Below are positions 17,800 through 63,412 of a DNA stretch of 64,000 nt, in pieces. The DNA is from Squalus acanthias (Eukaryota), in contig CM059432.1 of assembly GCA_030390025.1 (NCBI GenBank), positions 49,788,001-49,852,000 on the forward strand, read 5' to 3'. The translations under genes and the position numbers were made by a program. A model generated the notes under the pieces. The model was given only the letters and a program-made list of their open reading frames with translations, had not been told where the DNA came from and did not search any database. Every line of letters begins with the position of its first letter. Positions within the stretch are counted from its first letter, which is position 1.

Positions 17800-19770
17800 A
17801 GAAACATAGAAAATAGGTACAGGAGTAGACCATTCGGTCCTTCGAGCCTGCACCGCCATTCAATGCGTTCATGGCTGAACATGCTACCTCAGTACCCCAT
17901 TCCTGCTTTCTCGCCATACCCCTTGATCCCCTTAGTTGCGAGTGTTATATCTAACTCCCTTTTGAATATATTTAGCGAACTGGCCTCAACAACCTTCTGT
18001 GGAAGAGAATTCCATAGATTCACCACTCTCTGGGTGAAGAAGTTCCTCCTCAGCTCAGTCCTAAATGGCTTCCCCTTAATCCTTAGACTGTGACCCCTGG
18101 TTCTAGTTTTCCCTACCATTGGGAACATTCTGCCCGCATCTAATTTGTCTAAACCAGTCAGGATTTTAAATGTCTCTATAAGATCCCCCCTCATTCTTCT
18201 GAACTCCAGAGGATACAAGTTCAGTTGACCCAATCTTTCTTGATATGTCAGTCCGGCCATCCCAGGAATCAATCTAGTGAACCTTCGCTGCACTCCCTCA
18301 ATAGCAAGAATGTCCTTCCTTAAATTAGGAGACCAAAACTGCGCATAATACTCCAGGTGTGGCCTCACCAAGGCCCTGTACAACTGTAGCATCACCTCCC
18401 TACTCCTGTACTCAAATCCCCTTGCTATGAAGGCCATCATTCCGTTTGCTTTCTTGACTGCCTGCTGCACTTGCATTCCCACCTTCAGTGACTGATGTAC
18501 CATGACGCCCAGGTCTCGTTGCACGTCCCCTTTCCCTAATCTGCCACCATTCAGGTAATAGTCCGCCTCTCTATTTTTACCACCAAAGTGGATAACCTCA
18601 CATTTATCCACATTGTACTTCATCTGCCATACATTTGCCCATTCACCCAACCTGTCCAAGTCACTCTGTAGCCTCCTAGCATCCTCCTCATTGTTCACAC
18701 TGCCTCCCAATTTAGTGTCATCCGCAAATTTGGAGATATTACATTTAATCCCTTCGTCCAAATCATTAATATATAATGTAAACAGCTGGGGTCCCAGCAC
18801 CGAACCCTGCGGTACCCCGCTGGTCACTGCCTGCCATTCTGAAAAGTACCCATTTACTCCTACTCTTTGTTTCCTGTGTGCCAACCAGTTCTCAATCCAC
18901 GTCAACACATTACCCCCAATCCCATGTGCTTTAACTTTGCTCACCAATCTCTTGTGTGGGACCTTGTCGAAGGCCTTCTGAAAGTCCAAATACACCACAT
19001 CTACTGGTTCCCCCCTGTCCACCCTATTGGAAACATCCTCAAAAAATTCCAGAAGATTTGTCAAGCATGATTTCCCTTTCACAAATCCATGCTGACTTGG
19101 ACCTATCATGTCGCCACTTTCCAAATGGTCTGTTATGACATCTTTAATAATTGCTTCCATCATTTTACCCACGACCGATGTCAGGCTGACCGGTCTATAA
19201 TTCCCTGCTTTCTCCCTCCCTCCTTTTTTAAAAAGAGGGGTTACATTGGCCACCCTCCACTCCATCGGAACTGATCCAGAGTCTAAGGAATGTTGGAAAA
19301 TGATCGTCAATGCATCCACTATTTCCAAGGCCACCTCCTTAAGTACTCTGGGATGCAGACCATCAGGCCCCGGGGATTTTTCAGCCTTCAGTCCCATCAA
19401 TTTCCCCAATACCTTTTCCCGACTAATAAGGATTTCCCTCAGCTCCTCCCTCTTACCAGATCCTCTGACCCCTTTTATTTCCGGCAGGTTGTCTGTGTCC
19501 TCCACAGTAAACACCGAACCAAAGTACTTGTTCAATTGATCAGCCATTTCCTTGTTCCCCATTACGACTTCCCCTGTTTCCGACTGCAGGGGACCTACGT
19601 TTGTTTTTACTAACCTCTTTCTTTTTACATATTTATAGAAGCTTTTGCAGTCCATTTTAATGTTCTCTGCAAGCTTCCTTTCATATTTTATTTTCCCTGC
19701 CCTAATCAAACCCTTCGTCCTCCTCTGCTGAGTTTTGAAGTTCTCCCAGTCCCCGGGTTTGCTGCTACTT
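17800..19770 (-). mobile_element. Young CR1 LINE, ORF2 fragment without stops (17889-19770)
   Basis: 635-aa ORF carrying the complete RT motif set; tail CTATTTTCTATGTTTCTAT. Confidence 0.96.
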
Positions 19771-22152
19771 ATAGATACATAGATACATAGATACATAGAA
19801 GATAGGAGCAGGAGTAGGCCATCCGGCCCTTCGAGCCTGCTCCGCCATTTAATGAGATCATGGCTGATCCTTCAATTCAGTATCCCGTCCCCGCCTTCTC
19901 TCCGTAACCCTTAACCCCTTTTGCCTGTAGAAATATATCTAATTCCCTCTTAAATATATTTAATGAGCTGGCGTACACTGCCCTCTGTGGCAATGAGTTC
20001 CACAGGTTCACCACTCTCTGAGTGAAGAAATTCCCCCTCATTTCTGTCCTAAATGGTTTAGCCCTTATCCTTAAATTATGTCCTCTAGTTCTGTTCTCAC
20101 CCGCCAAGGGAAACATTCCTTCTGCATCTAATCTGTCTAGACCTGTCAGAATTTTATACACTTCTATGAGGTCCCCTCTCAATCTTCTAAACTCCAGTGT
20201 GTACATCCCTAAACTACATAGTCTCTCCTCATAGGTCAATCCCGCCATTCCTGGTATCAGCCTGGTGAATCGCCGCTGCACCCCCTCCATGGCAAGAACA
20301 TCTTTCCTCAGATGAGGCGACCAAAACTGTACACAGTACTCGAGGTGTGGTCTCACCAGTGCCCTGTACAGCTGCAGCAAGGTATCCCTGTTCCTGTATT
20401 CCAACCCTTTTGCTATGAAGGCCAGCATACCGTTTGCCTTCTTGACCGCCTGTTGCACCTGCATGCTCGCCTTCAGTGACTGGTGTACAAGAACACCCAG
20501 GTCTCTCTGTACTTCCCCCTCTCCCAATTTATTGCCATTTAAATAATAATTTGCCCTCCCGTTCCTGCACCCAAGGTGGATAACTTCACACTTGTCCACA
20601 TTATAGTGCATCTGCCATTTATCCGCCCAATCACCCAGTCTGTCCAAATCGCTCTGGAGCTTCCTGGTCTCCTCCTCTGAGCCCACCCCCCCTCCTAGTT
20701 TAGTGTCGTCTGCAAATTTGGAAATGCTGCATTCGACTCCCTGATCCAGGTCATTAATATAAATTGTGAACAGCTGGGGACCCAGGACAGATCCCTGTGG
20801 TACCCCACTTGTTACTGCCTGCCATTCAGAAAATGAGCCGTTTATTCCAACTCTCTGTTTTCTATCTGACAGCCAGTTCTCTATCCACGTCAATACTTTC
20901 CCCTTTATCCCATGAGCTTCAATTTTCCATGCTAATCTTTTATGTGGGACCTTATCGAAGGCCTTTTGGAAGTCCAGGTACACCACATCTACTGGCTCTC
21001 CCCCATCTATTTTACCAGTTACTCCCTCAAAAAATTCCAATAGATTAGTCAAGCACGATTTACCCTTTGTAAATCCATGTTGACTCTGTCCTATCCTGTC
21101 CCCATTTGCTAAGTGCTCGGCTATTTCATCCTTAATGATGGACTCCAGCATTTTGCCCACAACTGATGTAAGGCTTACAGGTCTGTAATTACCTGCTTTT
21201 TCCCTACCCCCCTTTTTGAATAGTGGGGTAACGTTAGCTACCCTCCAATCCATGGGCACTGTTCCCGAGTCTAATGAATTCTGAAAAATCATGCTTAGTG
21301 CATCCGCTATCTCTAGGGCCACCTCCTTCAGTACCCTAGGATGCATGTTATCAGGCCCTGGGGATTTGTCCGCCTTCAATCCCTTTAGCTTCCTTAACAC
21401 CATATCCTTAGAGATATTGATTTGCGTCAGTTCCTCCTTTGCCAATGTCCCTATTTTTCCCGATATCCCAGGGAGGTTTTTTGTGTCTTCCTTCGTAAAG
21501 ACTGACCCAAAGTATGCATTTAGTTGGTCTGCCATTTCCTTATTTCCCATTATATATTCCCCCGTATCTGACTGCAATGGACCAACTTTGGTTTTCACCA
21601 GTCTTTTCCTCTTGATATACTTATAAAAGCTTTTGGAGTTAGTTTTTATATTTTCCGCCAGCTTGCTTTCGTAACCTATTTTGCCCTTCTTGATTAAGCC
21701 CTTTGCCCTCCTTTGCTCTATCTTAAACTGTTCCCAATCTTCCGCTCTGGCGCGTTTTTTGGCTATTTTATACGCCCTATCTTTGGATTTTATGCTGTCT
21801 CTAATTTCCCCTGTTATCCACGGTTGAGTCACCTTTTTAGATTTCCTTTTATGCCAGATTGGTATAAACAATTTTTGCAATTTCGTCATTCTATCTTTAA
21901 ATGCTTGCCATTGTTTATCTACCTCCAGTCCTCCCAGGAACGTTGTCCAATCAGACCTACTCAGTTCCCGTCTAATGGCATCATAATTCCCCTTGTTTAA
22001 ATTCAGGACCTGAGTCTCTGAGTCAATTTCTTCGCTCTCCATTTCGAGTGAGAAATCGATCATGTTATGATCGCTCTGACCCAAGGGTCCCCGTACAACA
22101 AGATTACTAATTAGTCCCTTCTCATTGCACAGTACCCAGTCCAATATAGCCT
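19771..22152 (-). mobile_element. Young CR1 LINE, ORF2 fragment without stops (19877-22152)
   Basis: From AILDWVLCNE..GQSDHNMI (EN end) through RT to GYGEKAGTGY; tail (CTATGTAT)3. Confidence 0.96.
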
Positions 22153-23564
22153 GTGACTTGGATGAAGGGACCGAGTGTAATGTAGCCAAATTTGCTGATG
22201 ATACAAAGATAGGTGGGAAAGCAAATTGTGTGGAGGACACAAAGAATCTCCAAAGGGTTATAGATAGGCTAAGTGAGTGGGCAAAAATTTGGCAGATGGC
22301 GTATAATGTGGGAAAATGCAAGGTTATCCACTTTGGTAGGAAAAATAAAAAAGCAAATTATTATTTAAATGGGGAGAGATTACAAAATGCTGAGGTACAG
22401 AGGGATCTGGGGGTCCTTGTACATGAATCACAAAAAGTTAGCATGCAGGTACAGCAAGTAATTAGGAAGACAAATGGAATATTGGCCTTTGTTGCAAAGG
22501 GAATGGAGTATAAAAGCAAGGAAGTCCTGTTACACCTGGAGTACTGCATACAGTTTTGGTCTCCTTATTTAAGGAAGGATATACTTACATTGGAGGCAGT
22601 TCAGAGAAGGTTCACGAGGTTGATTCCGGAGATGAAGGGGTTGTCTTATGAAGAAAGGTTGAGCAGGTTAGGCCTATACTCATTGGAGTTTAGAAGAATG
22701 AGAGGGGATCTTATTGAAACATATAAGATTCTAAAGGGGCTTGACAGGATAGATGCAGAGAGGATGTTTCCTCTCATGGGGGAATCTAGAACTAGGGGGC
22801 ATAATTTCAGAACAAGGGGAAACCCATTTAAAACGGAAATGAGGAGGAATTTCTTCTCTCAGAGGGTCGTGAATCTTTGGAATTCTCTTCCCCAGAGAGC
22901 TGTGGAGGCGGAGTCATTGAATATATTTAAGGTGGAGATAGACAGATTTTTGAATGGTAAGGGAGTCAAGAGTTATGGGGAGCGGGCTGTGAAGTGGAGT
23001 TGAGGCCAAGATCAGATCAGCCTTGATCGTATTGAATGGAGGAGCAGGCTCAAGGGGCCAAATGACCTACTCCTGCTCCTACGTCTTATGTTCTTATGTT
23101 CTTATGTTCCTGCTCTCCCGATGCTCTGCCGCGCTGCTGTTTAAATACTTGGGGCAGCTCCTGTGGTGTGCCGCGCTCTCCCGACACTCTCAGATCATTA
23201 TCAGCTGTACAAGTGCTCTCAGTAATGAAGTTGATGGGGCGACTTGTAGTCAATGAGCTTTTTTGTGCCACAGTAAAATACTAATGAAGCTTTTTCACCA
23301 GTTTATGGAAGCCCGTGCTCTGTGATGTCACCAGACAGAATATTATTGCCTGCTGACATCAATAAGATTACTGCCACTGCTGTAACAGTGAAAACCAGTT
23401 TCCTGTACATGATAACTATTTAAGTCCCTGGGTATATGTTTTTTTCATTATAAATAACGTATGTAACAATCTATTTAATTAAAGTTTTCCATCTAGTCTT
23501 CCATCCATCACACTTGAATGCATCATACTTGAAAGAGTCACACGTGCAAAATTCATGTCACACC

Positions 23565-28311: not shown

Positions 28312-28598
28312 GGCGTAGAAATTCGGATGCATAGCACCTGTTGTTTGGGCGCTTCGGGTGCCGAATTGGGTCCAAAATGGTGTCCGAGCAGCTCGCACAC
28401 GCTTCTGGAGCGGGCCGTACCAGACATCACCTTGGTGAGGGCGATAGGGTGGCCGGAAGTATGGTAAGTAGGTAGATCGTGACGTCAATTAGTGTGCAAT
28501 TTATTTAAAGTTGGTGAAGTGACAGGGAGTGGTGCTGCAAGTGGAGAAGGCCTTGCTTCTGACTTCAAGGGTTCTGGTCAGACCACTTGCTCCCAGTC

Positions 28599-29657
28599 AT
28601 GGGTGCTCTAGTTGTCATCCCCCTTGGCCTGCAGCATGACAGGGAGATGGAGCAGAGGCAGCAAAGAAGAGGACAAGCTGCTCGCAGATGGACGAGGAGG
28701 AGGGGGAGAAGGATTCTCAGTAGGAGGCCTTACCCACCTAGGGTCTTCCGAGAGCAATTCACTTACCTCAACCTGAGACAGGAGCAGTGTGTGAGGCGTC
28801 TGCGCTTTACGCAGGAGGTGCTCACAGAACTCTGCCACCTCTTGCAACCACACCTGCAGCCTCACTACAGGGCAAGGACAGCGCTGCCAGTGGCTGTGAT
28901 GGAGACCGTGGCCCTGAATTTCTTCAAGTCGGGATCCTTCCAAGCTGGAGCAGGCGACATCTGTAACATCTCACAGTTCGCCATCCACTGCTACATAAGA
29001 GAGAAGCAGACGGAGCATGTGCGTGGCTTTGTCAGGATAACGGACATCCCCATGGTGCAGGCAGCCATCAACTGCGTGCACACAGCTTAGTGGGATGTGC
29101 AGTTGGTATGCAGCCATGCTCAGCACATCATGATGGTGAATGCCCGATATCCTGGCAGCAATCATGATGCATTTATTCTGCACCAGTTTGCAGTTCCCTC
29201 AGTCTTTGAGCCACCATGACAAACCAGAGAGTAGCTAATGTGCGACAAGGGCTATCACTTGATCACCTGACTCATGACTCCGCTCCGCAACCCAACCACA
29301 CGTGGCCAGCATGCGTACATTGAGAGACATGCTGCCACATGAAACATCATAGAGCAAACCATTGGAGTGCTGAAGCAATGGTTTTGCTGCCTGGACCAGT
29401 CTAGAGGAGCCCTACAGTACTCACCAGAGTGTGAGTCCCGATTCGTGGTGGTTTGCTGTATCCTCCACAACCTGGCCATCATGAGGGCGCAGCCATTGCC
29501 ACCAGAGATACGGCCACCAGCTCAGGAGCAAGAGGAGGAGAAGAAAGAAGAGGAGGAAGAGGAGGAGGAGGAGGAAGCAGAAGGAAGAAGGCAACCCAGA
29601 CAGCCCCTTTCTGGCTGGGATTTCTGGGATCAAATCACCTGCCTGCGGTATGAGTGA
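28599..29657 (+). pseudogene. Harbinger DDE transposase (HARBI1-like), disrupted
   Basis: RRLRFTQEVLTELCHLL, VALNFFKSGSFQ, QAAINCVH (GAIDCTH-like), YPGSNHDAFIL, DKGY, IEQTIGVLKQWFCCLD, CCILHNLA, poly-Glu tail; contains stops and deletions. Confidence 0.9.
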
Positions 29658-30309
29658 ATGCAACCCCAATTCCCATTTAAACATTAATCTCACACTTTAC
29701 CTTCCTTCTGTTAATGACCATCACAGTGCCCTCTTAGCCACTATGCTGAAATAAAAACCACCACAAAGCAAACAATCCAATCCAGCTTTCTACATCTATA
29801 TCCATCCAATATTATATCAAAAAATCAACTAATCACCCTTGTGCATTCTCCTAGTGACTGTCTTCTGTGTGCCTTTGCCTATCCTAATGCTCCTACGCAG
29901 TGCTACCCCAGTGGCTGCAGCATGGCTGGTGGAATGCTGCTGAATTTCAGTGGGGGAGACTGCAGATGACCTTGCAGGATGACCTCGAGGAGCTCTGGGC
30001 CTAGTAGGCCGGCTTCAGACTGCACCACCTCAGCATGGGCAGCAAAGGTCTGGGCTGGCTGGCTGACAGGCAACAGCAAGGGCAGTGGTGGAGTGGCAGC
30101 GGTGGGAGAATGAATGCTGTCATCCTGAGAGCGGACAGCAGGGTCGGCCTCCACGGATTCATTGCCACTCCCCTGGGGCAGCGCCTCAGCAATCCTAGTA
30201 TTCTGAGTACAGACTGCTGTGATACCCTGCAAGCCCCTTTCAACACTGGTAAACCCAGATATGATGGCAGCTGTCTGTGCTTGCGTGGTGTAAGAATACA
30301 CATAAACAC

Positions 30310-32929
30310 GACTGTGGCAGGGTGGCAGGAGTGGAGGTGCGCGTGGGGGGAGAACCGATGTCCAGGCCATTAAAACAATACACGTTCCCCAAGGAAGCGG
30401 AGAGATTTGAAAAAGGCAGTTGCGTCCTTGGTGGAGCAAGGGGTACTGAGGCCCCTTACGACGCATGTCAATTCCCCCATTTGGCCAGTCAAGAAACCAC
30501 AAGCTTCTAGGCGAATGACTATCGATTATAGAGTCCTGAATAAAATCATTCCCGCCTGCGCTCCCACGGTAGCCGCCGTGGTTGACTTGATCGGCAATAT
30601 CCCCAGTTCTGCCACCTTGTTCACAGTACTAGACATATCCAACGGTCGATTCCCTTACACCCAGAAGATCAGTATAAGTTCGCTTTTACCTTCAAAGGGC
30701 AGCAATATATGTGGACCTGCCTGCCACAGGGATTCCACAACAGCCCGTCTATTTTTCACCAGTGCATGGGCAAGTGCCTGACAGAGTTCAGTCAGCCAGG
30801 CCAACTTGTCCAATACGTGGATGACGTGTTGCTGTTCTCAGATAGTGAGGAGGAACATGAGGGGCTACTGGAAGAACTGTTAGAGTTGCTCAAAGCAGCA
30901 GGTTTTAAGGTAAACCCCAAGAAGGCTCAGATAGGGCAGGAGGAGGTCCAGTTTCTCGGACTGATTCTTCAACCGGGAGAGCGCGTGATAGACGAGACGA
31001 AGCGCAAAGCGATCCAGGAATTATACCGTCCGGGTTCGGTAACCGCTCTTAGGTCATTCCTGGGTCTGACAGGCTACTGTAGGGAACTCACGAGAGAATT
31101 ATGCTGCCATGGTAGCTCCTTTATTAAGGTTGTTAAGGAAGGGAGGAAAGGAGTAGAATGGGAGTGGAATGAGAACTGCGAAGAAGCATTTGTGCAGCTG
31201 AAGAGTGACTTACAGACAGCCCCGGCCCTAGAAGCTGTGGACCCTAAAAAGGGCTTCTGTCTAGAAGTTTGAGTGCTGTCCTTATGCAGGAAACTAACGG
31301 GCATTTGGGCCAGGAGAGGTTTTAAGTCAGCAGACGGCAAGCCATTGGTTACTGCACCAATGCTAGCAACCATAATGGAAGTCGTAGAAAGGGGAGGTGA
31401 AGAATATTATATCCATAAGGTCAAAGCCCATTCTAAAGCGGAATCCAGATAGGAGGGAAATAGGAAGGTGGACGAGTTAGCTAGGATGGGAGCGGAGGAA
31501 GGGGTTCCGTGGGATCCGTACCAATCGGGAGTAGTGGCGGCTGCTACCCCGGTACCCGTTACTATTTCTCTTCCTCCGGATCTTAAAATGATACAATTAA
31601 AGGATGTGGTATTAAGAGCAGTCCTCAAGGACAAGGAAGCCAGCCAGCCTGTGGAAGGGCCCTACTGGGCCAAAGATATCAGATCAGGGAAGGCATGTTG
31701 TTTAAAAGAGATAGGTGGATTGTGCCTGAAGGATACTGAGAGGAATTCATGCAGCTAGCTCACGGGGGACTGGGGGCTGGACATCCCGGCCCGGAGACGA
31801 CTTAGAAACGGGTGGAGGAAGTGGGATGGTGGCCTCACCTGAGGGAAAACGTAGAGGATTTCTGTAAAAATTGTTTGGTATGCGCAGCTAACAATCCCAA
31901 CCTGCACAAGAAAAAGGCTCCTCTAGGACGTACCTGTCGGTCTGAGGGACCGTGGCAGTGTGTTCAGATAGATTTTATTGGACCTCTGCCTACCACTAAG
32001 ATGGGCAATAAGTATTGTCTAGTCCTAGTGGACAATTTTACCAAGTGGGTCGAAGCCTTCCTGTGCAAGTCGGCCACAGCATTGTGGGCGGCCAAGACCC
32101 TAGTTAGGGAGGTATTTTCCAGATGGGGGCTCCCTCGAGTGATAGAATCAGACCAAGGGAGTCATTTCACAGGTCAGGTGATGCAGGCCACTCTGAAATT
32201 GTTTGGGATTTAAGGGAAATGGCACGTGGCTCACAACCCGCAGTCATCGGGATTTGTGGAAAGAATGAACCGTACATTGAAATTGGCTCTGCGTAAAGAA
32301 TTGAACGAAAACCCCACCAGGTGGGATGAGGTACTTCCCCTAATCCTTATGGGAATACGCAGTAAAGAGTCCAAAGGAACGGGTTACTCCCCACATGAAT
32401 TGGTAACGGGGAGACCCATGCGAACCCCCACACATCTGTTGGTCCCCACTTTGACAGACAAGCAGGTGGTGGAGGTGACCAGGGATAAAGTCCTGAGCAA
32501 TCTTTGGTAAACTTTAAAGGAGGTACACCTGGGGGCCACCCACAACATTGGGAAGGCACACCAGCGCAACCGACTACATTGGCTCCGAGTAAATCCCAGG
32601 AGTCGGAAGTAGGAAGCCAGGTGATGGTACGAAATTATGTGAAGGTGGGACTCTTCGAACCCCTCTACAAGGGACCGTATAGCATTGTCGAGACAGCTAG
32701 TCCTATGGTGTATGCGGTTCTACTACCTAAGAAAATTAAATGGTTTCACAGTAACCAGATGAAGTTTTTTCAGCCCACCAGCACGTCAAAAAGACAGCAG
32801 GCCACGATCATGAGCATGGTGAGGCTGACTCATCCTCTCCAATGGGATGATGGAGAAGGGCTGCCGAATGCGGTGCCCCCACTCAATGAGGCACCTCTGC
32901 ATGGCACGGCGCCTCCCCAGGTACAGTAA
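30310..32929 (+). pseudogene. pol: Retroviral pol: RT, tether, RNase H, integrase (frameshifted)
   Basis: NSPIWPVKKP, TIDYRVLN, LDISNG..SIPL, WTCLPQGFHNSPSIF, QYVDDVLL; WARRGFKSADGKPL..HKVKAHS..GNRKVDELA; AH..GH..CKNCLVC; QIDFIGPLP..SDQGSHF..SSGFVERMNRTLK; YKGPY. Confidence 0.93.
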
Positions 32930-33044
32930 GGTTACAATCTGAGGCAACGGCCCCGGGAGCGGCCAAGGCGGTATAGCGAATAGTTAGTATAGAGTCTGAG
33001 TAGCCGATGGTAGGGTGAAGGGATGCAGGACCGGGAGTAACACT

Positions 33045-33069
33045 CCACTTTTGTTCCCTTCTCCCACAG
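33045..33069 (+). promoter_or_regulatory. Putative env splice acceptor
   Basis: CCACTTTTGTTCCCTTCTCCCACAG|G between the pol end and the env start. Confidence 0.6.
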
Positions 33070-33139
33070 GCCAGAACAAGGCAGAGAAAAGATAGGGAGA
33101 CTATTGAGGTTGCAGTATGGCAGAGTGCTCTACGGCAGA

Positions 33140-35463
33140 ATGATAGTAATGACGGTGGAGCTTATATATGAAAGTAGGCCCGGCGGTTCAAGTTACGACA
33201 GTCAGATTACCATTGCCCCAGTAACTTCGCCCCGAGGTACCGCTCGGGAGGTTACCCTCCGACCCATTTCGGGCATGTGCAAAACAAGTTGCTCGGGAAT
33301 AGTACGGTAACCACGTATGAGGTCCAAGAAGGGAGGGGGATATGTGTAATGTGTAAGAGTGGGACTACAAGTCAGCCGCGTGTATGGTTTATCCAAGTGA
33401 AGGCAGGTAACAACACAAGGTACCATCAGATAGGGGATCCTAGGGGGAACCATGGGACCCCAACTCAATCGGAAGGTGATGGAGAGACCATGTTATGTTG
33501 GCTACGATGGCGGTGGGAACACAAGGGAATCTACGGGTGTGTAGGACTCCTGGGGATACCGAATGTTGAGGTGCCTCCACAGTGTGAAATTCCCGTCAAA
33601 CTAGATAGTGATAGCAATATCGTGCCCTACCAATGACACAGCCAGGAAAGGCGGTCATGCCAACACAGTAGTCATCCAAACTGCACTGTGAACAAACTGC
33701 ACTATGACCTATCATGTGCAGGAATGTAACAATGGAATAATACACACAGTGGAATTGAAAGTCCGTCCTAAACTTCCCCTCCCTACGAATAAAACACAGA
33801 CGGCCCAGGAATGTTGCCCCAGACACACCAAATGGGCTGGTGGTGAGCCCCACTCGAATGGTGCTGTACCACGACATGCACCATGAGGTAATACCAGTAA
33901 TGTTGAATCTGACCGAGTTGGGGCTGCCTGGTTGGTGCAAACCTGAAACAGCACAATTGTACAGAAAAATGATGCAGGAACTGATAGAGGGATTTTGGAA
34001 AAAGACCAGTGAAATGCTGACGGAATCGGAATTGGAGCCTTTATACCACATTGACCGTAGGGATGGTTATGGGTCTAATGGCACATTTGAGGAAAATGGT
34101 ACTCGGATTACTACCCAGGGGAATCACACCTAAAGGCGGCGGAGCCTGGTGAATGACAGTGTAGCCATCTTCAACACCGGAACTTCCCTCACTAATAGCC
34201 TTGATTTGGCAAGCCTAGACCAATCTGTAAAGACGATTAGAAACAGTTTAAGGAAAATTTTGTATGAAATTAATGATCAGGAACAGGAGGAATTGGAGGA
34301 GGACCAAATTATGACCATACACCTGCGGATGTGGTAAAATATCTAGAATCTCAGGCTGAGACGATAAATCAGGTTTTAAAGGAGGACCGGAATGCCTCTA
34401 GTGAGGCTGCGCGAAACGATGTACGTATAATGTATGGGTCTTGGTTGGTGGAACAAACCCGAGAAAACATACAGCACATTGTTGAGGGGAAACTCCCCTC
34501 GTGGGTGACTGATTGACATCTGATGGCGATGTCCACTTACCAACTTACCATGACTATGTGCCGAGTCAGAGGATTGGTACAGGTATACCCGGTGAAACAC
34601 GAGTGTGATTGGCAGAGGCAAAGGAACATCACCCTGTTAGGGATGGTATTATATTATCCCGTTCTGCCTGAAAACGCGGCCCCAAGTCCTCTATTCCATG
34701 TAGAGAACATAGGGGTGCGTCAGGGAAACCACCTAGTAGAGTTTGATGAACCCCCACAATACGTGACCCGAGTGAATGGGACCACATGGGTGGCCCCAGA
34801 TCTTACCAGACGTGCTCAAGCTCGGGATACATTCATCTGCCCCTACGATGTGGCAAACATGCAGCCCCAGCTTGCGGGTTCAATTGGGATAGGGTGGTGT
34901 GGAATTGTACCATGAAAGTGGCACCTCCCCGTATGATCTGCATATTGAGGGAAGGGAGAATATTGTGTGATTACTATGCAGCGGGAATACCAGAACGGTA
35001 ACGACCTGACTTGTCCTATTGCAGTGGGAACTTTTTGTTTCACCCCAGTTTGTGAGACTTGGGGTTGTTAAGCATTTATTCACATAAGCAAGTAAATACT
35101 ACTGTAAAGGATGAGTTAAAAGAGCAATTGAACCGGTACATGACTCGGTTCGGCTATAACATCCCACCGCTGCAAGAAAACTTGGTAGAGTTAATGAGGC
35201 ACGTCAATCAGTCCGAGAAGCATTATTATACCTTAGCCCAAGAAAACCATGAGCGACGAAAGGAAATATCTAGGCTTGGGAATGATTCGTCCTGGTGGGA
35301 TATCAGTAGGAATATTGAGGTTCACCCATGGATAAAGATTATCTCCCATGTCTTGGTCATTGTTCAGCTGGTGATTGTGTTATACTTACTGATAATAACT
35401 TGCCACATCAACAGATGATGCAAACAGCGAAAGTTGATCAAGCTGTTACAGAAGACACGGTAA
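33140..35463 (+). pseudogene. env: Envelope/fusion glycoprotein (frameshifted)
   Basis: Many N-x-S/T sequons; basic site *RRR|SLVNDSVAIFNTGTSLTNSLDL at ~34134; heptad-like helices; Cys-rich region ENIG..PDL..FICP..CG..NC..YC..TCP..FCF; TM IISHVLVIVQLVIVLYLLIITC (~35340-35403); short basic tail. Confidence 0.85.
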
Positions 35464-35560
35464 GAAGAAGACAATGATGAGGTGTAAGTGCCTGTGACCC
35501 AACATTCGGGTGCACAGCCACTTGAGGGTGGACTTTGTAAGAACACATCATTGCTGTAAA

Positions 35561-36282
35561 GGGCCAGAAATTCAGCTCTCCAGCTTCCCGCGGGTGCAAG
35601 GATCGCGCGCGTACTTACCTAGCGCACCTGCCATTGTGCTTTGGGCCTGCGTGAAATTCGGCTCCTGGGCCTCTTGCAGCTGCTGGTGCGCAGTGCTTGT
35701 GTATCCCAGGAGCGCAGTTAGTTCGAAGCGTCCCCTGGGATCACGTGGGCCATGGAGAGCCAATCGGAGCAGGGAATCTCCATTCATAGATTTTGACAGG
35801 AATTAATAGAGATCGGCCCCAAAACCTCACTAAAACTTCAAATAAATAAAGAAAAAATCACATTTTTAAAATAACTATAAATTACATAAATTAACTACTT
35901 TAAACAAAAATTTAAATTTTTGAAAAAGTTAATTGCACTTTTTAACGGTGCTAAAAATAAACATACCTTTCTTTAAAGTATGTAAAAAAGATAAACCTGT
36001 TGAAAAAATGTTTAAATAGTACTTAATTCACCACTTACCTTGTTAAAAGCAGGCCTTGCGCCTCCTTTTTTCCTGCGCAGCTTCTCCGTACTTACCCTCA
36101 CGGAGAAACCTGAAAATAAAAACGAAGTTTGCTGCGTTCGACCTCTGAACCCCTTCCTTCAGGGGAACGGAAGTTCCGGTTTCCAGCGCATGCGCAGTGC
36201 ATGCGCGAAACTGGCACTTTTGTTGGGTCCACGGGTGAGTACACAGCGCGTACTCACCCGTGGAGACCCGAATTTCTGGCCC
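35561..36282 (-). mobile_element. Harbinger-type MITE in the ERV LTR
   Basis: Perfect TIR GGGCCAGAAATTC / GAATTTCTGGCCC; AT-rich core; related to 56390-57134 in opposite orientation. Confidence 0.85.
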
Positions 36283-36498
36283 TTTAAAGTAACTTGACTA
36301 AACTCAAAGTTGACCAAATTTAATGGACCGGCATACCTTGAGAGACGGAGGGCCGTGTTACTGGGCAAATTCCATATAAATCACAGATAAGGAAGTGGGC
36401 CTTGAGAGTTCTGTAAAACAAATCTTCGAGCCATTGTTACCAGGAACTTTTTCAGACAATGGCGTAACCGGCCTTGAGGCCCACTGACTAACAGATAA

Positions 36499-36679
36499 CT
36501 AACAACGGCATCTCCGCATCATATATATGCTGTGCTCATTTGTATTTTTTCACTTCACCTGACGAAGGAGCAGCGCTCCGAAAGCTTGTGATTTCAAATA
36601 AAGCTGTTGGACTATAACCTGGTGTTGTGCGACTTCTCACTTTTGTCCACCCCAGTCCAACACCGGCATCTCCGCATCA
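36499..36679 (+). mobile_element. Penelope-like terminal repeat fragment
   Basis: TAACAGATAA on both flanks (36489-36498, 36680-36689); CGGCATCTCCGCATCAT near both ends (partial tandem structure typical of PLEs); hammerhead motif. Confidence 0.82.
36555..36591 (+). ncRNA. Minimal hammerhead ribozyme motif
   Basis: TCAC-CTGACGA-A-GGAGC-AGC-GCTCC-GAAA-GC-TT-GTGA; palindromic AAGCTT allows a dimeric stem III. Confidence 0.72.
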
Positions 36680-38025
36680 TAACAGATAAGGAGAGGAGAA
36701 AGAAAAACAACTACTGGCCATTGTTAACGTGGTCTGGGACACCTACGCATTGGGCGGTCTGCTAAGTTTTGGGGAATAAAAAGTGCAGGCGAAAGGCACT
36801 AGGGGCTGCTGCAGTGAGTCGGGTGACTTGATCAATCGCAGAGAAGAAAACCTACGAGTCACCGCCGAACTGATCACTCGCTGGTGTTAGTACGTATGTA
36901 TGCTTGTACTTGCTTGTAATCACTGTTGATTTTAAGTAAAGAATAGTTACCCTGAAATCTTTGTCTCGAGTTGTCTGTTCCAATACGGGTCCGAACTCTA
37001 TGTACTGTTAAACTGGAGTAAAAATTTACACATCTTACAGTGGCAGCAAGCTGAGCTTGCGTGGCAACAAGTTGAACTTGCATGACTTCAGTCTGAGCTT
37101 CCATTGCAGCACTCAGATGTTGGGTGGCTTCTGCTTGAGCTGCAGTGGAAGCTGAGACCTCGGCCATCAGACGCGGCATGATGGTTGGGTCTACAAGTGC
37201 ATTAAAGGATCTGCCCACCCCGCCTCGCTGGAAAGGATGGGCTCCAAGCTCTGCTCACAGCCCTGTGCAAGGCTGGAGCTGGACTCCTCCATGCTCCTTG
37301 ACATTGCATTCAGGCTTTCTGGCAGGCCTGCCAATGCACCACGCATTTCATTGTGCATACCCATCAGCGTTCCTTTGTATGCAGCCCCATTGAGGTTTTA
37401 AACTGAGTCCTGTGTGGCAGAACCCGTGTGCGACTTCGCCTTCTGGGGAGCTGGCACCTGAGCTTCCAGTGCAGCACTCAGACGTTGTGTAACTTCTGCT
37501 TGTGCTGCAATGGAAGCTGCACCATCATCCATCACACCCAGCATTATGGTTGGGTCCACAAGTGTTCTAATGGAGTTTCTCATCAATTTTGTCCTGGATC
37601 ATGGGCTCCAAGCTCCGCACAAAACCCCGTGCAATGTTGGAGCCGGACTCCTCCGTGCTCCTTGACACCAACAAGAGGCTCTCTGGCCTGCCATTGCACC
37701 AAGGATTTCTGTGTGCATGCTCATCACCCTTCTTCTGAAGGCTGCCCCATCAAAGTCTTCATCTGAGTCCTGTGCAACAGAACTCGTGTGCGACCTCGTC
37801 CTCTGAGGAGCTGGCACCTGAGCTACCCTGTCCCCCTGCCCTGGCTGCAGGCCACTCGAGCCCAGTGTCTCACCATGTGCAGATCCCATGGGTGTGGTGC
37901 ATTGAGCATTGTATGAGGCTAGTGGTGCAGATGGTGGGATATGACATTTGAAGATGAATTCCCTGACCTTGACCACTCATGTGAGGTCATTAAACTTCAA
38001 TTGCACTGAGTCCTGGTCCTCGGGG

Positions 38026-51869: not shown

Positions 51870-53560
51870 ATTAATAATTTATTAATGATATTTGGAATGT
51901 TTGTTTTGTGGTGGCTTTTATTTCAGCATTGTGCCCAAGAGGACGCTGTGATGTTCCATGACAGAGGGATGGTAAGGCGGGGAAGTGTTGCACAACGGGG
52001 ATCTGGGGTTTCCATCAGGGGAGCAGGAGTCTGATGAAGTGTTCACGGACAGCCCGTCCGGAATGGGGATTTGCAAGCTGCCTCCTCCCTTCCTCCTCCT
52101 CCTCCTCCACCTGAGGTGGTCGTGGAACCCGTGATGGCTGCACCCTCATGATAGCCAAGTTGTGGAGCATGCAGCAGACCACCACGAATTGGGACACCCA
52201 CTCTGCCGAGTACTGGAGGGCTCCTCCCGAGTGGTCAAGGCTGGTCTGCTCGATGATGTTCCTCATGGCAGTATGGCTCTCATTATATGAGTGCTGGCCA
52301 CGAGTGGTGGAGTTGTGGAGGGGAGTTCTCAGACAGGTGTAGAGCAGATAGCCCTTGTCTCCGAGCAGCCACCCTTGGGTTTGACGTGGTGGCTGGAAGA
52401 TTGCTGGCACAGCTGACTGGCGCAGGACGAAGGCATCATGACTGCTGCCAGGATATTGGGCATTCACCATCATGATGTGCTGGGCGTGGTCACACATCGA
52501 GTGCACATTAAGAGAGTGGTAACCATTGCGGTTACGGTACATCTCAGGATTGATATGCGGTGGCCACAAATCCACAAGTGTGCAGTTGATGGCGTCCTGC
52601 ACCATCGGGATGCCCAATATCCTGGCAAAGCCACTTGCGCAGTCCTCCTGCTCCTCTCTGTTCAGAAAGAAAACAATGAATTCCCCTCTCCTGGAGTACA
52701 GAGCCTATGTGACCTCCCGGATGCAGTGATGGATGGTGAACTGGGAGATGTTAGCTATGTCGCCTGCTCCAGCCTTCAAGGCCACGGTCACTTTGAAGGC
52801 GACTAGCAGCGCCGTCGTCGCCCTGCTCTGAGGCTGCAGGTCTGGTTCCAAGAGCTGGCAGAGTTCTGTGACCACGTCCTTGTGAAGCAGAGCCTACGAA
52901 TACACTGCTCCTGGCTTAAGTGCAGGTAGGAGAAGTGCTCCCTGAATGCACAAGGTAGGTAAGGCCTCCTGCTGAGAGCCTTCCTTCCCCTCCTCCTCCT
53001 CCCTCTGTGAGCAGCTTGCTTTGCTGTCTCTGCTCCATCTCCCTATCATGCTGCAGTGTGAAGGGGACTGCAATTTAGAGCCACCATGCCTTGAAGCAAG
53101 TGGTGTAGTCAGAGGCCTTCCTTTAAGAGACAATGCCTTCCCAACGTCCAGCAGCACTTCCTGCACACTTTCCCAACTTTTTAAATGTCTTACACCAAGG
53201 CACTACTCAAATAAACTGGACAGGCGCCAGTACAAAAACAAAAAGCAACTTACCTCAAAGTTGCACTGTGTCCCTTTAAGTAGTGCTGGTGGGGTCCCTC
53301 GTGCAGCTGAATGCACGTTCAGTGGAGCGGCGATGTCCAAAATGGCAGGTCATGCTTCAAATCAGCGTTACATGCTGATTGATGTCACAATCTGCCTCAT
53401 TTGAATTCTTCCGCCGCACGCAGGCAACAGCCACGCTATCGCCCTTTCCAAGATGGCAACCAGCACAGCCCACGCCATAAGTCGGCGGAAGCGAGGTGGC
53501 CACCATTTTTTTCCGGTAGCTGGCCTTAACTGTCAGCACTAAGCATGGGAATTTTACGGC
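51870..53560 (-). mobile_element. Harbinger fragment with disrupted transposase and one TIR
   Basis: VQDAINCT..YRNRNGYHSLNV..YPGSSHDAFVL..WLLGDKGY..CCMLHNLA; end GAATTTTACGGCC. Confidence 0.88.
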
Positions 53561-55800: not shown

Positions 55801-56389
55801 CGCTAAGGCCCTTGCCAAATTGCGGCTGGTGAGTCCCGTGCCAGAGAAGGGCCCATCTGTTGTAATAATGTTGGTTGAGGGATAAATATTTGCCAGGACA
55901 CCGAGGAAAAAGCCCCTGCTTCTTTCTTTATTTCTATTTCTTCTTGGAATATGGGCCGCCCATCTCTAGTTGACATGAGGGCATTAAGCATCAACCACAT
56001 ATTGTTGGAACTGGAGTCACATTTAGGCTGGACTAGGCAGGAGTGCAACTTCTTTTTCCATCAGGATATTAATGAACCAGTTCTGCTATTACAATAATCT
56101 AGATGCTTGAACTCTGTTTCTCTCTCCACGCATGTTGCCTGATCTGCTGAGTATTTGCAACATTTTCTGTCTTCTCAGAGACCTTCCTTTACCATCCAAG
56201 GCTTTGCAAGCATCCAACAGCATTCCCTGCACACTTAAAAAACGTTTAACATGTATTTAGGCTGGACTAGGTAGCAGTGCAACTTCTTTTTCCATCAGGA
56301 TATTAATGAACCAGTTATGTTATTACAATAATCTAAAAGCTTTCATGGTCATTTTGTCTAGAGCCAGCCCCCAAATTGCCAGATTTAAT

Positions 56390-57134
56390 GGGCCAAAAGT
56401 TGATGCCGCTACGCGAGAGTACGCACTGTGTACTCTCGCGTATTCTCTCTCCAATTGCGGTTTTCTGCATGCACTGCGCATGCGCTGAAAACCGGCACTT
56501 GGTGAATGGAAAAGGGGGCAGTTCCTCGGTGCACCGCGTGCGCGCTACAGGCTGCGCGCACGCTGTGCACTTAGTGCTTTGGACGCGCAGGTAAGGACGG
56601 AAGATTTTAGAAATGAAAAAAGGAGGAGTAAGACCCACTTTTAACAAGGTAAGTAGTGAATTAAGTATTATTTTGAATTTTTTTTAACAGGTATATCTTT
56701 TTTAGAGACTTTAAAGACAGGTAAGTTTATTTTTATAACTTTTTAAAAGATTTTAAAGTTTTTCAAAAATTTAATTTTTTATTTAAAATGGTTAATTTAT
56801 TTAACTATACTTATTTTATTAATGTGATGGTTTTTAAAAAAAATTTAATTGAGGTTTAGCTGTTATTTTGGGGGGGGGTGTAAGATTCATAGCTTTCACA
56901 GCACGTATGTGAAACTTATGAATGGAAGATGGTGTGCTGCCATTGGCTCTAACTGAGTCACGTGATCCCACAGCTCGCACGAATTCACTACGCCGGTGGG
57001 ATACGCAAGCACTGCCCAGCTGATGTCTAGAACATCAAGTTCGTGCGAGCTGGATCTGAAAAAGCCAACGCGGAGTGAGAGATCGCGCCTGCTCCTTACC
57101 CCCGCGGGAACAGAGCGAGATCAATTTCTGGGCC
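56390..57134 (+). mobile_element. Harbinger-type MITE related to 35561-36282
   Basis: TIRs GGGCCAAAAGTTGAT / ATCAATTTCTGGGCC; shared CTTTTAACAAGGTAAGT.GTGAATTAAGTA. Confidence 0.8.
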
Positions 57135-58689: not shown

Positions 58690-61600
58690 AGCAGGCAGAT
58701 CATGATGTCAATCAGCGTGTAACACTTATTTGATGCCAGCGCTGCCATTTTAGAGCTCAATGCTCCAGCGAACTCCCTCTTAAGCTCACAAAGCTAAACA
58801 CGTGTTCAGGAGCAGGCAGGACCCCCCACCAGCGCTATTTAAAGAAAGCATCAACCACAATCAATGGATCAGATCAAAGCTGTGCAGTCCTGCCACATCC
58901 AGTCGTGAATGGTGGTGGACCATTAAACAACTAATGGAAGGAGGAGGCTCCATGAATATCCCCATCCTCAATGATGGCGGAGCCCAGCATGTGACTGCAA
59001 AAGACAAGGCTGAAGCTTTTGTAACCATCTTCAGCCAGAAGTGGCGAGTGAATGATTCATCTCGGCCACCTCCTGAGGTCCCCACCATCACAGAAGCCGG
59101 TCTTCAGCCAATTCAATTCACTCGACGTGATATCAAGAAACAGCTGATCACACTGGAAACAGCAAAGGCTGTGGGCCCCGACAACATCCCGGCTATCGTG
59201 CTGAAGACTTGTGCTCCAGAACTAGCCGTGCCTCTAGCCAAGCTGCTCCAGTACAGCTGAAAAATGGCATCTATCCGACAATGTGGAAAACTGCCCAGGT
59301 ATGTCCTGTCCACAAAAAGCAGGACAAATCCAATCCGGCCAATTACCACCACATCAGTCTACTCTCAATCATCAGCAAAGTGATGGAAGGTGTCATCGAC
59401 AGTGCTATCAAGTGGCACATACTCAGCAATAACCTGCACACCAATGCTCAGTTTGGGTTCCACCAGGACCACTAGGCTCAGTACAGCCTTGGTCCAAACA
59501 TGGACAAAAGAGCTGAATTGCAGAGGTGAGGTGAGAGTGACTGCTCTTGACATCAAGGCAGCATTTGACTGAGTGTGGCATCAAGGAGCCCTAGTAAAAC
59601 TGAAGTCAATGGGAATCAGGGGGAAAACTCTCCACTGGCTGGAGTCATACCTAGCACAAAGGAAGATGGTTGTGGTTGTTAGAGGTCAATCATCACAGCC
59701 CCAGGACATCGCTGCAGGAGTTCCTCAGGGAAGTGTCCAAGGCCCAACCATCTTCAGCTGCTTCATCAATGACCTTCCCTCCAACATAAGGTCAGAAGTG
59801 GGGATGTTCGTTGATGACTGCACAGTGTTCAGTGCCATTCGCAACTCCTCAGATAATGAAGCAGTCCATGCCCGACTGCAGCAAGACCTGGAAAACATTC
59901 AGGCTTGCGCTGATAAGTGGCAGGTAACATTCGCGCCACACATGTAGCAGGCAATGACTATCTCCAACAAGTGAGATTCTAACCACTGCCCCTTGATATT
60001 CAACGGCATTACCATCGCCGAATCCCCCACCATCAACATCCTCGGGGTCGCCATTGACCTGACCACAAACTTAAGTGGACCAGCCACATAAATACTGTGG
60101 CAACAGGAGCAGGTCAGAGGCTGTGTATTCTGCAGCGAGTGTCTCACCTCCTGACTCCCCAAATCCTTTCCACCATCTACAAGTCACAAATCAGGAGTGT
60201 GATGGAATATGCTCCACTTGTCCGGATGAGTGCAGCTCCAACAACACTCAAGAAGCTCGACACCATCCAAGACCAAGCAGCCCGCTTGATTGGCACCCCA
60301 TCCACCACCTTAAACATTCACTCCCTCCACCACCGGCGTACCGTGGCTGCAGTGTGTACCATCTAGAAGATGCACTGCAGCAACTCACCAAGGCTTCTTC
60401 GGCAGCACCTCCCAACCCCACTACCTCTACCACCTAGAAGGACAAGGGCAGCAGGAGCATGGGTACACCATCACCTCCAAGTTCCACTCCAAGTCACACA
60501 CCATCCTGATTAGGAAATATATCACCGTTCCTTCATCGTCGCTGTGTCAAAATCCTGGAACTCCCTCCCTAACAACACTATGTGAGTACCTTCACTTCAC
60601 GGACTGCAGCAGTTTAAGAAGGCAGCTCACCACCACCTTCTTAAGGGCAATTAGAGATGGGCAATAAATGCTGGCCTTGCCAGCGATGCTCACATCCCAT
60701 AAAAACGAATTAAAAAAAAATAAAAGCATAATTGGCAGCAGTCTGCTGTCCCATCTGCATTTGAGCCACCACAACAAACCAAAGGGTGATTACTGGACGA
60801 CAAGTGCTATCGGTTGAAGACATGGCTCATGACTCTGGTGCGCAACCCACACACACATGGGCAGCATGCATACAATAAAAGGCATGCTGCCACACAAAAT
60901 GCGATAGAGCAGACAATTGGTGTGCTAAAATAATGCTTCCGCTGTCTGGACCGCTCTGGAGGAGCCCTGCAGTACTCAGCAGAGTGGGTGTCAAGATTTG
61001 TCATGGTCTGCTGCATGCTGCACAACCTCGTCATCATGAGGGCACAGCCGTTGCCATCAGCTATATGGTGAGCAGCTGAGGAGGAGAAGGAGGAGGAAGA
61101 GAAAGAAGAGGAGGAGGAGGAGGAAGAGGAAGAAGAGGAGGAGGAGGAGGAAGAGGAAGGGAGGAGGGAACCTAGACATCCCCTTTCTGGCTGGGTTGTC
61201 CGTGAAGAACTCATCCAAGTGCGAAACCTACCCTAGGGAACTTACGCAGTGCTACCTCAGTGTCTGCAGCATGGCTGGTGAAAGGCTGGTGACTTTCAGT
61301 GGAGGGGACTGCATATGGCCTTGGAGGACAACCTCGAGCAGCTCTGGGCCTATGGACTGCATCATCTCGGCATGTGTGGCAGCAGTCTGGGCTGGCTGGC
61401 TGACAGGCAACAGCAAGGGCACTGGCGGAGTGGCAGGTTGGGAGGATGAATGCTGTCATCCTGAGAGAGGACAGCAGAGTCCTGCTCCACGGAGCCACTG
61501 CCACTTCCCTGAGGGCGACGCCTCAGCAATCCTAATAATCTGTTGAAGGATGGATTTCTGGATTGCTGTGACACCCTTCAAGCCACTTTGAACAGTGGAA

Positions 61601-63412
61601 TCCACAGCTGTGACGGCAGCATGGTGACCTTACATGACAGCAGTCTGAGCTTCCACTACAGCACTCAGACATTGGGTGGCTGCTGCTTGTGCTGCAATGG
61701 AAGCTAAGACATCAGCAATCAGATGCTACACCATAGTTGGGTCCACAAGTATGTTAATAGAGTTAGCCACCACTTCCATACTGGAAAGGATGGGCTCCAA
61801 GCTCTGCGCAAAACCCTGTGCCAAATTGGTATCGGACTCCTCCATGCCCCTTGACATTGCACGCAAGCTTTCTGGCAGGATTCTCAATGCACCAAGCATT
61901 TCAGTGTGCATACCCATCAGCCTTCTTCTGTAGCCTGCCCCAATCAAAGTGCTCATCAGAGACCTGTGCAGCAGAACTCGTGTGCGACCACCCCTTCTGG
62001 CGAGCTGGCACCTGCGCTATCCTTGCCCCCTGCCCAGGCTGCAGGTCACTCGTGCCCAGTGCCTCACCAGGTGCAGATCCTGCCTCTATGCTATCCTTTA
62101 AATTACATGCAGTGTCAGTATCTGAGCTGGTGGCTGCGAGTGTGAAAAACGAGTGACGGTGTGTCTTCATCTTCACTATCTTCTTGGTCTTCCTCCACTA
62201 CCTGGCCAGGTCGCAGTTCTTGGGTATCTGAAAGGACAAAGGCACAATGGTAAGGTTGTGGTGAGGGGAGAGGAGAAAGCAAGAGGTGCATGCTTACACC
62301 ATCTACAGGTTGTAAATCAGAAGAGATTGTGGGATGAGATGAAAATGGGATGTGAGAAGGAGGTCTAGGTATGAAGATACCGTCATCTTCTATGGTTTCT
62401 GCCCTGCCGTTGGCCACAACCTCAGCAATGGCCATCCCAATAGTGGCCAGCACCGTCTCCTCCATGGGGGTTAGGGGATGCAGGCGCACCTGTCCCTCGT
62501 CGGTTAGCTCCTGCTGCCTCTGGTTGTGCGCCACCTTGTCCTGCAAGACAGAGGGAAGTGTGTCAGTGAGTGTAATGCAATCTGTTTGGCTGATGCGGCT
62601 GTCATGGTTGAATAGCTGGCAGTGTGTGCAAGCTGTGAGATGTCGGTGTGAGGCTTGCAGCAGTGCTAAGTGTGTGAGGGTGAGGTGAAGCTATGAATGT
62701 TAGGTATGAGTCCTGAATGATAGGGTAAGTTGTTAGGTGAGTGATAGGGGTGTGGAGCATTGAGCAGTGGCTGAGGCTAGTTGTGCAGTTGGTAGAGATA
62801 TTGCATTTGAAGATGCATTCACTGACCTTGACCACTCGAGTGAGGTCATTGAACTTCTTATGCCACTGCATCCAGGTCCTCGTGGCTTGACTCCTGGCAT
62901 TGGCTGCCATGGCTATCTGCTCCCATTGCCTTACAAGCATGTGTCTGGAGGGCTTCCTGGACCCCTGTGGATACAGCACATCTCTCCTCCTTTCCACCTC
63001 CTCCACCAAGACCTCCAGTGCAGTGTCAGAAAACCTTGGAGCCCGCTCTCTCCCCTATTGTGCCATTCCTCACTCTTTCCCAGGTCAGAATCTCTTCAAC
63101 CATGACTCCCAGCATCTGCTCCAGTCACAATGCACCTCCACTTTAAGAGGTGCAGGCTAGCTTTAAGCAGTGCAGGCTAGCTTTAAGCAGTGCAGGCTAG
63201 CTTTAAGTAGTGCTAGCAAGGTACAATTTTGGGCCCTTGCTGCTGCGTGCAGCCAATCAACAGTGTGGTTAGCACTGGCTGCACACTGCAATCATGTTAA
63301 TCAGCAGGCAGCACAAAGTTGGTGTGCTACCTGCATTGGAAACAATGGACACGGGTTAATCACGCATCACGATCCCCGTGCCCATTTTTGGAGGGCTATC
63401 AAATTTAGCCCC
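58690..63412 (+). mobile_element. Harbinger element: transposase C-terminus (+, ~60790-61215) and spliced Myb gene (-, ~61240-63065), with a LINE replacing most of the transposase
   Basis: LLDDKCY..IEQTIGVLK..CCMLHNL and (GAG)n tail; Myb exon 1 VEEVERRRDVLYP..QWEQIA..KKFNDLTRVVK|GTCAGT; exon 2 TTGCAG|DKVAHN..LTPMEETVL; end AAATTTAGCCCC. Confidence 0.82.
58856..60722 (+). mobile_element. Zenon-like LINE, 5'-truncated and degenerate
   Basis: PATSSREWW..AVGPDNIPAIVLKTCAPELA..ALDIKAAFD..GVPQGSVQGP..MFVDDCT; poly-A tail. Confidence 0.9.

Follow-up and report, generated by a model that had tools for sequence, protein, structure and literature searches.

The window analysed here is the whole 64,000-nucleotide stretch of the Squalus acanthias assembly GCA_030390025.1 (contig CM059432.1, positions 49,788,001 to 49,852,000, forward strand), and it was found to contain a decayed endogenous retrovirus (ERV) at positions 30289 to 37039. 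The provirus starts with TGTAAGA and terminates with TCTTACA, and the nucleotides GTGG are duplicated on its left (30285-30288) and right (37040-37043) sides. The genes pol and env are followed by the presence of a purine tract and a 3′ long terminal repeat (LTR). These ends, the 4-bp duplication and this order had been described in a first-pass annotation of the letters, and all of them were found in the sequence. The same annotation had read the element as a member or relative of the lokiretroviruses, a reading that the phylogenies below contradict. The element very probably belongs to an elasmobranch ERV family in which a canonical Pol related to snakehead retrovirus (SnRV; class III-related, clade Huo) is combined with a class I fusogen Env of the F type carrying an N-terminal immunoglobulin (Ig)-like domain.

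The provirus and its family in the genome

The 3′ end of the window provirus matches the ends of the LTRs in two siblings, and its ends are therefore not due to chance. The 5′ LTR was found to be a stub of about 12 bp only (TGTAAGAA..., 30289-30300, + strand, boundary approximate), joined to pol by a large deletion. It enters pol near 30298-30300, where a short sequence is shared at the junction of stub and pol, and the primer site, gag and protease are therefore gone. The polypurine tract (35524-35532, + strand) is followed by the 3′ LTR (35536-37039, + strand), which is made up of three pieces of about 600 bp in total, with 92-95% identity to the sibling LTRs, and is split by two later insertions. 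The first is an element of about 725 bp with terminal inverted repeats and a TAA duplication (35560-36284). Its site is empty in the sibling L018, its relatives were found at window positions 56384-57018 and in the pol of L018, and we infer that it is a miniature inverted-repeat element of the Harbinger/PIF type. The second is a 181-bp host repeat (36499-36679) with a 10-bp duplication, TAACAGATAA, whose site is likewise empty in L018 and which has matches of 87-99% elsewhere. Both pol and env contain several stops and frame changes. The provirus that had been annotated is thus real but more damaged than described, with its 5′ LTR reduced to a stub, gag and protease gone and most of the tether deleted. 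The window copy is dead and heavily deleted and is incapable of any of the retroviral steps proposed below. It shows no sign of a host function, and it is not datable by an LTR pair.

The reverse transcriptase (RT) region of pol (30298-31164, + strand) lies in two frames and is of the canonical, snakehead-related type by its RVT_1 match, the trees and the approximately unbiased (AU) test. The motifs LDISNG, SIPL, WTCLPQGFHNSP and YVDD, listed in the first-pass annotation, are present in it. The RT is followed by the first 34 or so residues of the tether, a degenerate RNase H (31165-31269, + strand; positions 1-34 of 100 in PF17919), the rest being deleted, and by the C-terminal half of the second RNase H with an in-frame stop (31285-31500, + strand). 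Compared with a relative, about 220 codons are gone near 31270-31285, a gap that takes in the remainder of the tether and the RNase H up to its middle. The integrase (31680-32878, + strand) contains the HHCC motif, the D-D-E core and a GPY/SH3 C-terminus, all as noted before, together with stops and a frame change. The Pfam matches in the window pol were RVT_1 (E 1e-27), rve (1.6e-14) and Integrase_H2C2 (2e-7). The motif KVKAHS..GN..VD.LA of the second RNase H is there, as had been noted, but a complete double RNase H was seen in relatives only. The tether and second RNase H are common to canonical retroviruses and are therefore not diagnostic for lokiretroviruses; the double RNase H does not distinguish lokiretroviruses from other retroviruses (PMC7947760).

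Queries with the RT, the env core and the env head each gave at least 150 matches in the 3.7-Gb genome, and the family is therefore large. The two closest copies that were fetched are 7.7% and 7.3% divergent from the window (427/5579 and 248/3388 aligned bases), and mismatches between the two LTRs of each number 26 in 554 and 30 in 466 bases. The age of these LTR pairs is about 11-15 million years at a mammalian rate or 107-146 million years at the shark rate assumed in the excerpt of PMC4422223, and is therefore poorly fixed. Other subfamilies were about 65% identical in the RT and frequently contained long open frames. A search for fuller copies, which had been proposed with the first annotation, recovered relatives with gag (including a CCHC knuckle), protease, RT, tether, second RNase H, integrase and env. 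The gag-pol junction was TGA-CTAG in both of the relatives checked, and related copies contained primer-site-like sequences starting with TGGCG. In two copies of a closer subfamily (L011, L012) the window env was matched in two abutting stretches only, so that most of their env is deleted.

The cartilaginous-fish host assumed in the first annotation agrees with two alpha-haemoglobin exons, whose best matches are 1CG5, 1GCV and 3MKB (82/73/70 and 80/76/72 bits; the next at 61.5 and 59.3 bits, for single-domain chains). We take these three to be stingray, houndshark and mako haemoglobins, and they point to an elasmobranch.

The envelope

The env of the window was found to contain a predicted Ig-like (V-type) domain at its head (33295-33567, + strand), followed by the presence of an F-type fusion core in pieces with several stops and frame changes (33801-35418, + strand). 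The core contains a basic cleavage site with a fusion-peptide-like segment (near 34134, + strand), heptad repeats, Cys-rich beta domains and a transmembrane helix (near 35340-35405, + strand). The window env pieces matched the Env of a related copy in tblastn (E 1e-62, 32-36% identity), and against the family profile six natural env frames of the window gave E values between 1e-32 and 5e-9.

The F fold was predicted on this related copy, from 34 sequences, with a core mostly at a predicted local distance difference test (pLDDT) score of 70-90. The best Foldseek match of the model was the F protein of human parainfluenza virus 3 (E 2e-11). A structural aligner matched residues of about 245-651 to nine paramyxovirus and pneumovirus F chains (Z 12.2-10.2) and the model to foamy virus Env (Z 8.6-8.7). 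In ESM Atlas the family Env matched Baculo_F and Fusion_gly clusters at 0.93-0.94. The resemblance of Env to the fusion proteins of Mononegavirales, cited in the first annotation for lokiretroviruses, is borne out for the family by the predicted fold of the related copy. An Env of canonical retroviruses with a paramyxovirus/pneumovirus F core has been published for foamy viruses (PMC11468914, excerpt, in which neither SnRV nor lokiretroviruses are named; PDB 8RM0/8RM1). The family resembles them in this core, but its model is nearer to the paramyxovirus and pneumovirus F proteins (Z 10-12) and its Gag contains a CCHC zinc knuckle.

Among the predicted viral proteins matching the Env model, the Env of walleye epidermal hyperplasia virus 1 (WEHV1) and walleye dermal sarcoma virus (WDSV) ranked 3rd and 10th, at E 3e-13 and 8e-11 (BFVD entries Q9WHI8 and A4GTG3, both walleye epsilonretrovirus Env). 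These matches of models suggest that the walleye epsilonretrovirus Env may also be of the F type; it is described as neither gamma- nor beta-type in the excerpt of bioRxiv 2021.11.23.469661. The walleye proteins differ from the family Env in length (1159-1317 residues as against about 800), and the epsilon-like Pol rows, labelled with host names only, stood in a separate branch of the RT tree. An unnamed BFVD entry, A0A384ZVF2, also matched the model (E 1.5e-13).

The Ig-like domain was recognised in the window's own piece with a best Z of 7.1, and nearly all of the 50 listed rows were Ig-type chains. The corresponding region in the full model of the related copy gave a Z of about 5, and a weak Pfam Ig_3 match (E 0.019) was found in a relative. 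A frog Pol relative continues into an Ig-like start by eye, and a bamboo-shark Env homologue carries the name 'Ig-like domain-containing'. Confidence in a predicted Ig-like head is moderate. A gamma-type Env was rejected, since neither the immunosuppressive domain nor CX6CC was found in the window env frames or in the Env of the relative (CX6CC was found in two of five control proteins). Named Env homologues were found in a skate, in three sharks, one of them a sawshark, and in frogs of three genera. The frog homologues are P0138, P0166 and P0185 (Pelodytes, Mantella and Xenopus); the cluster from Mantella comprises 16 members, mostly of 677 residues, which suggests a young family in that frog.

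F proteins are cleaved at a basic site, which frees a fusion peptide, and their two heptad repeats then refold and fuse the membranes. By analogy, cleavage of the family Env at its basic site would free the fusion peptide to enter the target membrane, and the two heptad repeats would zip into a six-helix bundle and bring about fusion. The Ig head would be the receptor-binding part of Env, because a separate attachment gene is absent. The gag and pol genes appear to lie in one frame with a leaky UGA between them, from which Gag-Pol would be made by readthrough. The integrase would leave the 4-bp duplication. In the window copy a deletion then removed the 5′ part, and the two insertions entered the 3′ LTR.

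Placement of the family and of its envelope

The window RT was found to contain WTCLPQGF, as in the canonical rows, with the signature LPQGFHNSP. In the excerpted RT alignment of PMC9040795, W[TN]R[CM]PFGY is present in all five lokiretrovirus rows and WTRLPFG in the Odin rows. The lokiretrovirus references comprised the loci L021 and L022 from a motif scan, with an RT that by eye is nearly the same as the Loki-Bsp row in that alignment, and named fish, lamprey and frog proteins. The RT and integrase phylogenies had been proposed with the first annotation. In the RT tree of 55 rows the window RT piece fell in the canonical clade (100/96), and lokiretroviruses and Odin formed a separate clade (100/99); a repeat with 45 rows gave the same placement (100/99 each). 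The AU test rejected a grouping of the family with lokiretroviruses (log-likelihood 52 lower, p=1.8e-5), and in the integrase tree of 36 rows the lokiretrovirus and Odin clade (100/98) excluded the family, the position of the integrase itself not being resolved. All trees were built under LG+G4 only, a simpler model more prone to long-branch errors. For the 55-row tree 15 of 70 rows were dropped, mostly near-duplicates; for the 45-row tree 13 more were dropped and 3 added; and the integrase tree contained the 36 rows with enough integrase. The canonical RT rows were of the gamma, epsilon and class III types, with SnRV, foamy, alpha, beta and lenti RTs left out.

That the element is a true lokiretrovirus or an immediate sister is thus highly improbable, and this identity was excluded on the RT signature, the RT trees, the AU test and the integrase tree. 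The family does share with lokiretroviruses and Odin the gag-pol-env layout, the tether with second RNase H, an F-related Env and the basic cleavage site (PMC7947760; PMC9040795, excerpt). Its Env is homologous to that of lokiretroviruses: a full Env profile matched a true lokiretrovirus Env in hhalign (98.4%, E 7e-15, 340 columns, 20% identity), with 0.6% for a gamma-env-bearing protein as control, and a lokiretrovirus Env query matched one family env copy in the genome (E 7e-4). The TGA-CTAG junction of the family also has a counterpart in the in-frame gag-pol junction of the lokiretrovirus L022. The family differs, however, in having its RT and integrase outside their clade, no PFGY and an additional Ig head on Env. 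The Env link is real but, as judged from sequence profiles, remote, and it depends on distant rows from sharks and frogs: with a profile of the 14 close family rows only, lokiretrovirus Env gave 5.8 and 10.6 bits (best shuffle -1.1).

An env-carrying Ty3/Gypsy element of the errantivirus kind has a negligible probability. Invertebrate Gypsy elements commonly carry an F-type env (bioRxiv 2023.10.26.564294, excerpt) and the top ESM Atlas matches include Gypsy/Baculo_F clusters, but the relatives contain the dual RNase H, and RT and integrase were separated from Gypsy at 100/99-100. The first annotation, in which the element was already called a retrovirus and set apart from Gypsy, is upheld on this point, the RT not lying within Gypsy/Metaviridae. 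The crocodilian ERV4 was also rejected: it is described with a 5-bp duplication, no Gag zinc finger and no GPY/F (PMC4299795, excerpt), whereas the window has the 4-bp duplication and GPY and the relatives have CCHC. In scans of viral contigs no loci were found for the family RT and no match for the lokiretrovirus motif.

The nearest named Pol relatives were coelacanth and frog proteins. The RT of a related copy had 52-53% identity with relatives from coelacanth and Xenopus, as against 34-36% with lokiretroviruses and 37% with murine leukaemia virus. Over 113 N-terminal RT columns a close relative was identical by eye to SnRV at about 67, to HERV-L at 53 and to Loki-Lch at 49, which makes SnRV the best by-eye match among the published rows compared. 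An SnRV motif gave no match among the protein sequences searched. Lineage I of the elephant shark ERVs (CmiERV-I) clusters with SnRV (Han 2015, PMC4422223, excerpt), and by eye it shares with the window family the Pol motifs THKHDCG, PACAP, LDISNGFWSIP and LPQGFHNSP, a TGA after gag and a chondrichthyan host. Clade Huo has been reported in every major lineage of vertebrates (PMC6001957; PMC12193657, excerpts). A separate and unnamed lineage of the class III-like kind that stands no nearer to SnRV than it does to ERV-L or the foamy viruses is distinctly unlikely: the family forms a long, fully supported RT branch (100/100), the base of the canonical clade was not resolved in the 55-row tree, nor was the integrase position, but the by-eye identity to SnRV and the motifs shared with CmiERV-I argue for the snakehead branch. 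Further subfamilies in this genome (L023, L024, L026-L028) belong to the same broad Pol branch and are nearer a Xenopus protein than the window family.

In chondrichthyans this Pol lineage had been reported before, from the elephant shark (PMC4422223, excerpt), so that the window element fills no host gap and what is new is the envelope. By eye CmiERV-I carries a gamma-type Env with an LQNRMALD-like immunosuppressive segment and CX6CC, whereas the Env of the window family is of the F type, has an Ig head and lacks the gamma-type motifs; the presence of both types in the snakehead-related branch indicates that env was exchanged within it. SnRV itself is complex, with accessory open reading frames and a 136-residue Env tail, none of which was seen in the window family.

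The combination might also have arisen by recombination, a snakehead-related pol having captured its env from a fish lokiretrovirus in place of an old F-type env. Anamniote ERVs frequently exchange env, and the published cases include a class III Pol with a gamma Env (bioRxiv 2021.11.23.469661, excerpt); true lokiretrovirus remnants exist in the same genome, and the Env is detectably homologous to lokiretrovirus Env. This origin is nevertheless unlikely. The similarity is very remote (20% identity, and weak with close rows only), closer Env homologues are present in other sharks, a skate and frogs, and in the lokiretrovirus Env of L022 the F core comes first, with no Ig head before it. The matches of the model to the Env of foamy viruses, WEHV1 and WDSV likewise fit an old and widespread F-type env.

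Several points weigh against a snakehead-related Pol joined to an F-type, Ig-headed Env. The F fold was modelled on a copy only 32-36% identical to the window Env, with a mean pLDDT of 58.8, and the Pfam fusion families gave no sequence match in the family Env. By sequence PF00523 was absent from the family Env, lokiretrovirus Env giving E 1e-5 and 2e-3. A single weak Baculo_F match (E 0.001) was found among 14 Env homologues, and the Env profile found nothing among the PDB sequences (best E 0.034). The Ig-like head has a Z under 8 and a pLDDT of 49. The clade joining the family with the coelacanth and frog relatives had support of only 94/96 and 92/95, and as SnRV, foamy, alpha, beta and lenti RTs stood outside the trees, the term 'snakehead-related' rests on comparison by eye. 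Readthrough and receptor binding are predictions.

Further than this family, the data tentatively suggest, as a possibility that falls short of probable, an undescribed lineage widespread in anamniotes (sharks, skates and frogs) in which a snakehead-related Pol is combined with a compact Ig-headed F-type Env, the F type being ancestral, and with it the first lokiretrovirus fossils of cartilaginous fish. If so, the family Env, together with those of foamy viruses, walleye epsilonretroviruses and lokiretroviruses, would mark the F-type fusogen as the ancestral retroviral envelope, as opposed to the model of independent env gains in lokiretroviruses and canonical retroviruses. In the excerpt of PMC9040795 the canonical and lokiretrovirus Env are without detectable similarity, and two independent gains of env are preferred. 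Here a canonical-type Pol is paired with an Env that is homologous to lokiretrovirus Env by profile and F-like by predicted fold, and the question of the ancestral envelope becomes testable. The family would be a third vertebrate lineage of the F type, beside the foamy viruses (published) and the walleye epsilonretroviruses (model match only). An F-like Env in the snakehead-related branch would widen the range of retroviruses known for that type of entry protein, and the Ig head suggests how a single protein might both bind and fuse. A literature search covering part of the relevant papers found no prior description of an F-type Env in SnRV-related ERVs.

Lokiretrovirus remnants and other features of the window

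Lokiretrovirus RT was found elsewhere in the genome in two degraded loci, both on chromosome-size contigs. The first (G000:C7:114567214-114567699, L025/L029) lies near host repeats, contains WCPFGY and is 52% identical to lokiretrovirus Pol and 25% to the window family. The second (L031/L054, on G000:C9 near 93870300) showed 76% DNA identity. Four single-frame pieces of the remnants fell in the lokiretrovirus and Odin clade (100/99) and inside the lokiretroviruses (91/85) in the 45-row tree, and the first remnant piece was placed inside them at 97/83 in the 55-row tree. Apart from the RT region, the remnants gave a single weak gag match (E 7e-5), and no lokiretrovirus env was found near the two RT loci. 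The exact lokiretrovirus DNA motif gave 0 matches in this genome, and the degraded remnants surfaced only by protein search.

The main text of PMC7947760 lists lampreys, bony fishes, amphibians and reptiles as lokiretrovirus hosts and never mentions cartilaginous fish, in agreement with the host list given in the first-pass annotation. The chondrichthyan gap pointed out there is not filled by the window element, but the two RT loci support the idea, and from their sequence they are candidates for the first lokiretrovirus fossils from cartilaginous fish. A literature search, which covered part of the relevant papers and did not extend to the list of genomes screened for lokiretroviruses, found no report of lokiretroviruses in this group. 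Should such remnants be confirmed in further sharks, the chondrichthyan gap in the published list of hosts would be closed. Three unnamed Pol proteins (P0249, P0254, P0256) were found to be sister to the lokiretroviruses; two of them are Odin-like by eye, and P0254 mixes lokiretrovirus and Odin motifs.

The provirus is surrounded by Harbinger-like DNA, with a DDE_Tnp_4 match at 29343-29654. The segment 61355-61879 was found to be a paralogue of both provirus flanks without the provirus (79%). Remnants of Harbinger-like transposase were present at 28563-29657, 52018-52704 and 61355-61879, and repeated units of about 365 bp at 37093-37827 lie 3′ of the provirus. On the - strand, two long RT-bearing frames (17889-19871 and 19877-22357; RVT_1 E 1e-34 and 1e-31) are probably long interspersed nuclear elements.

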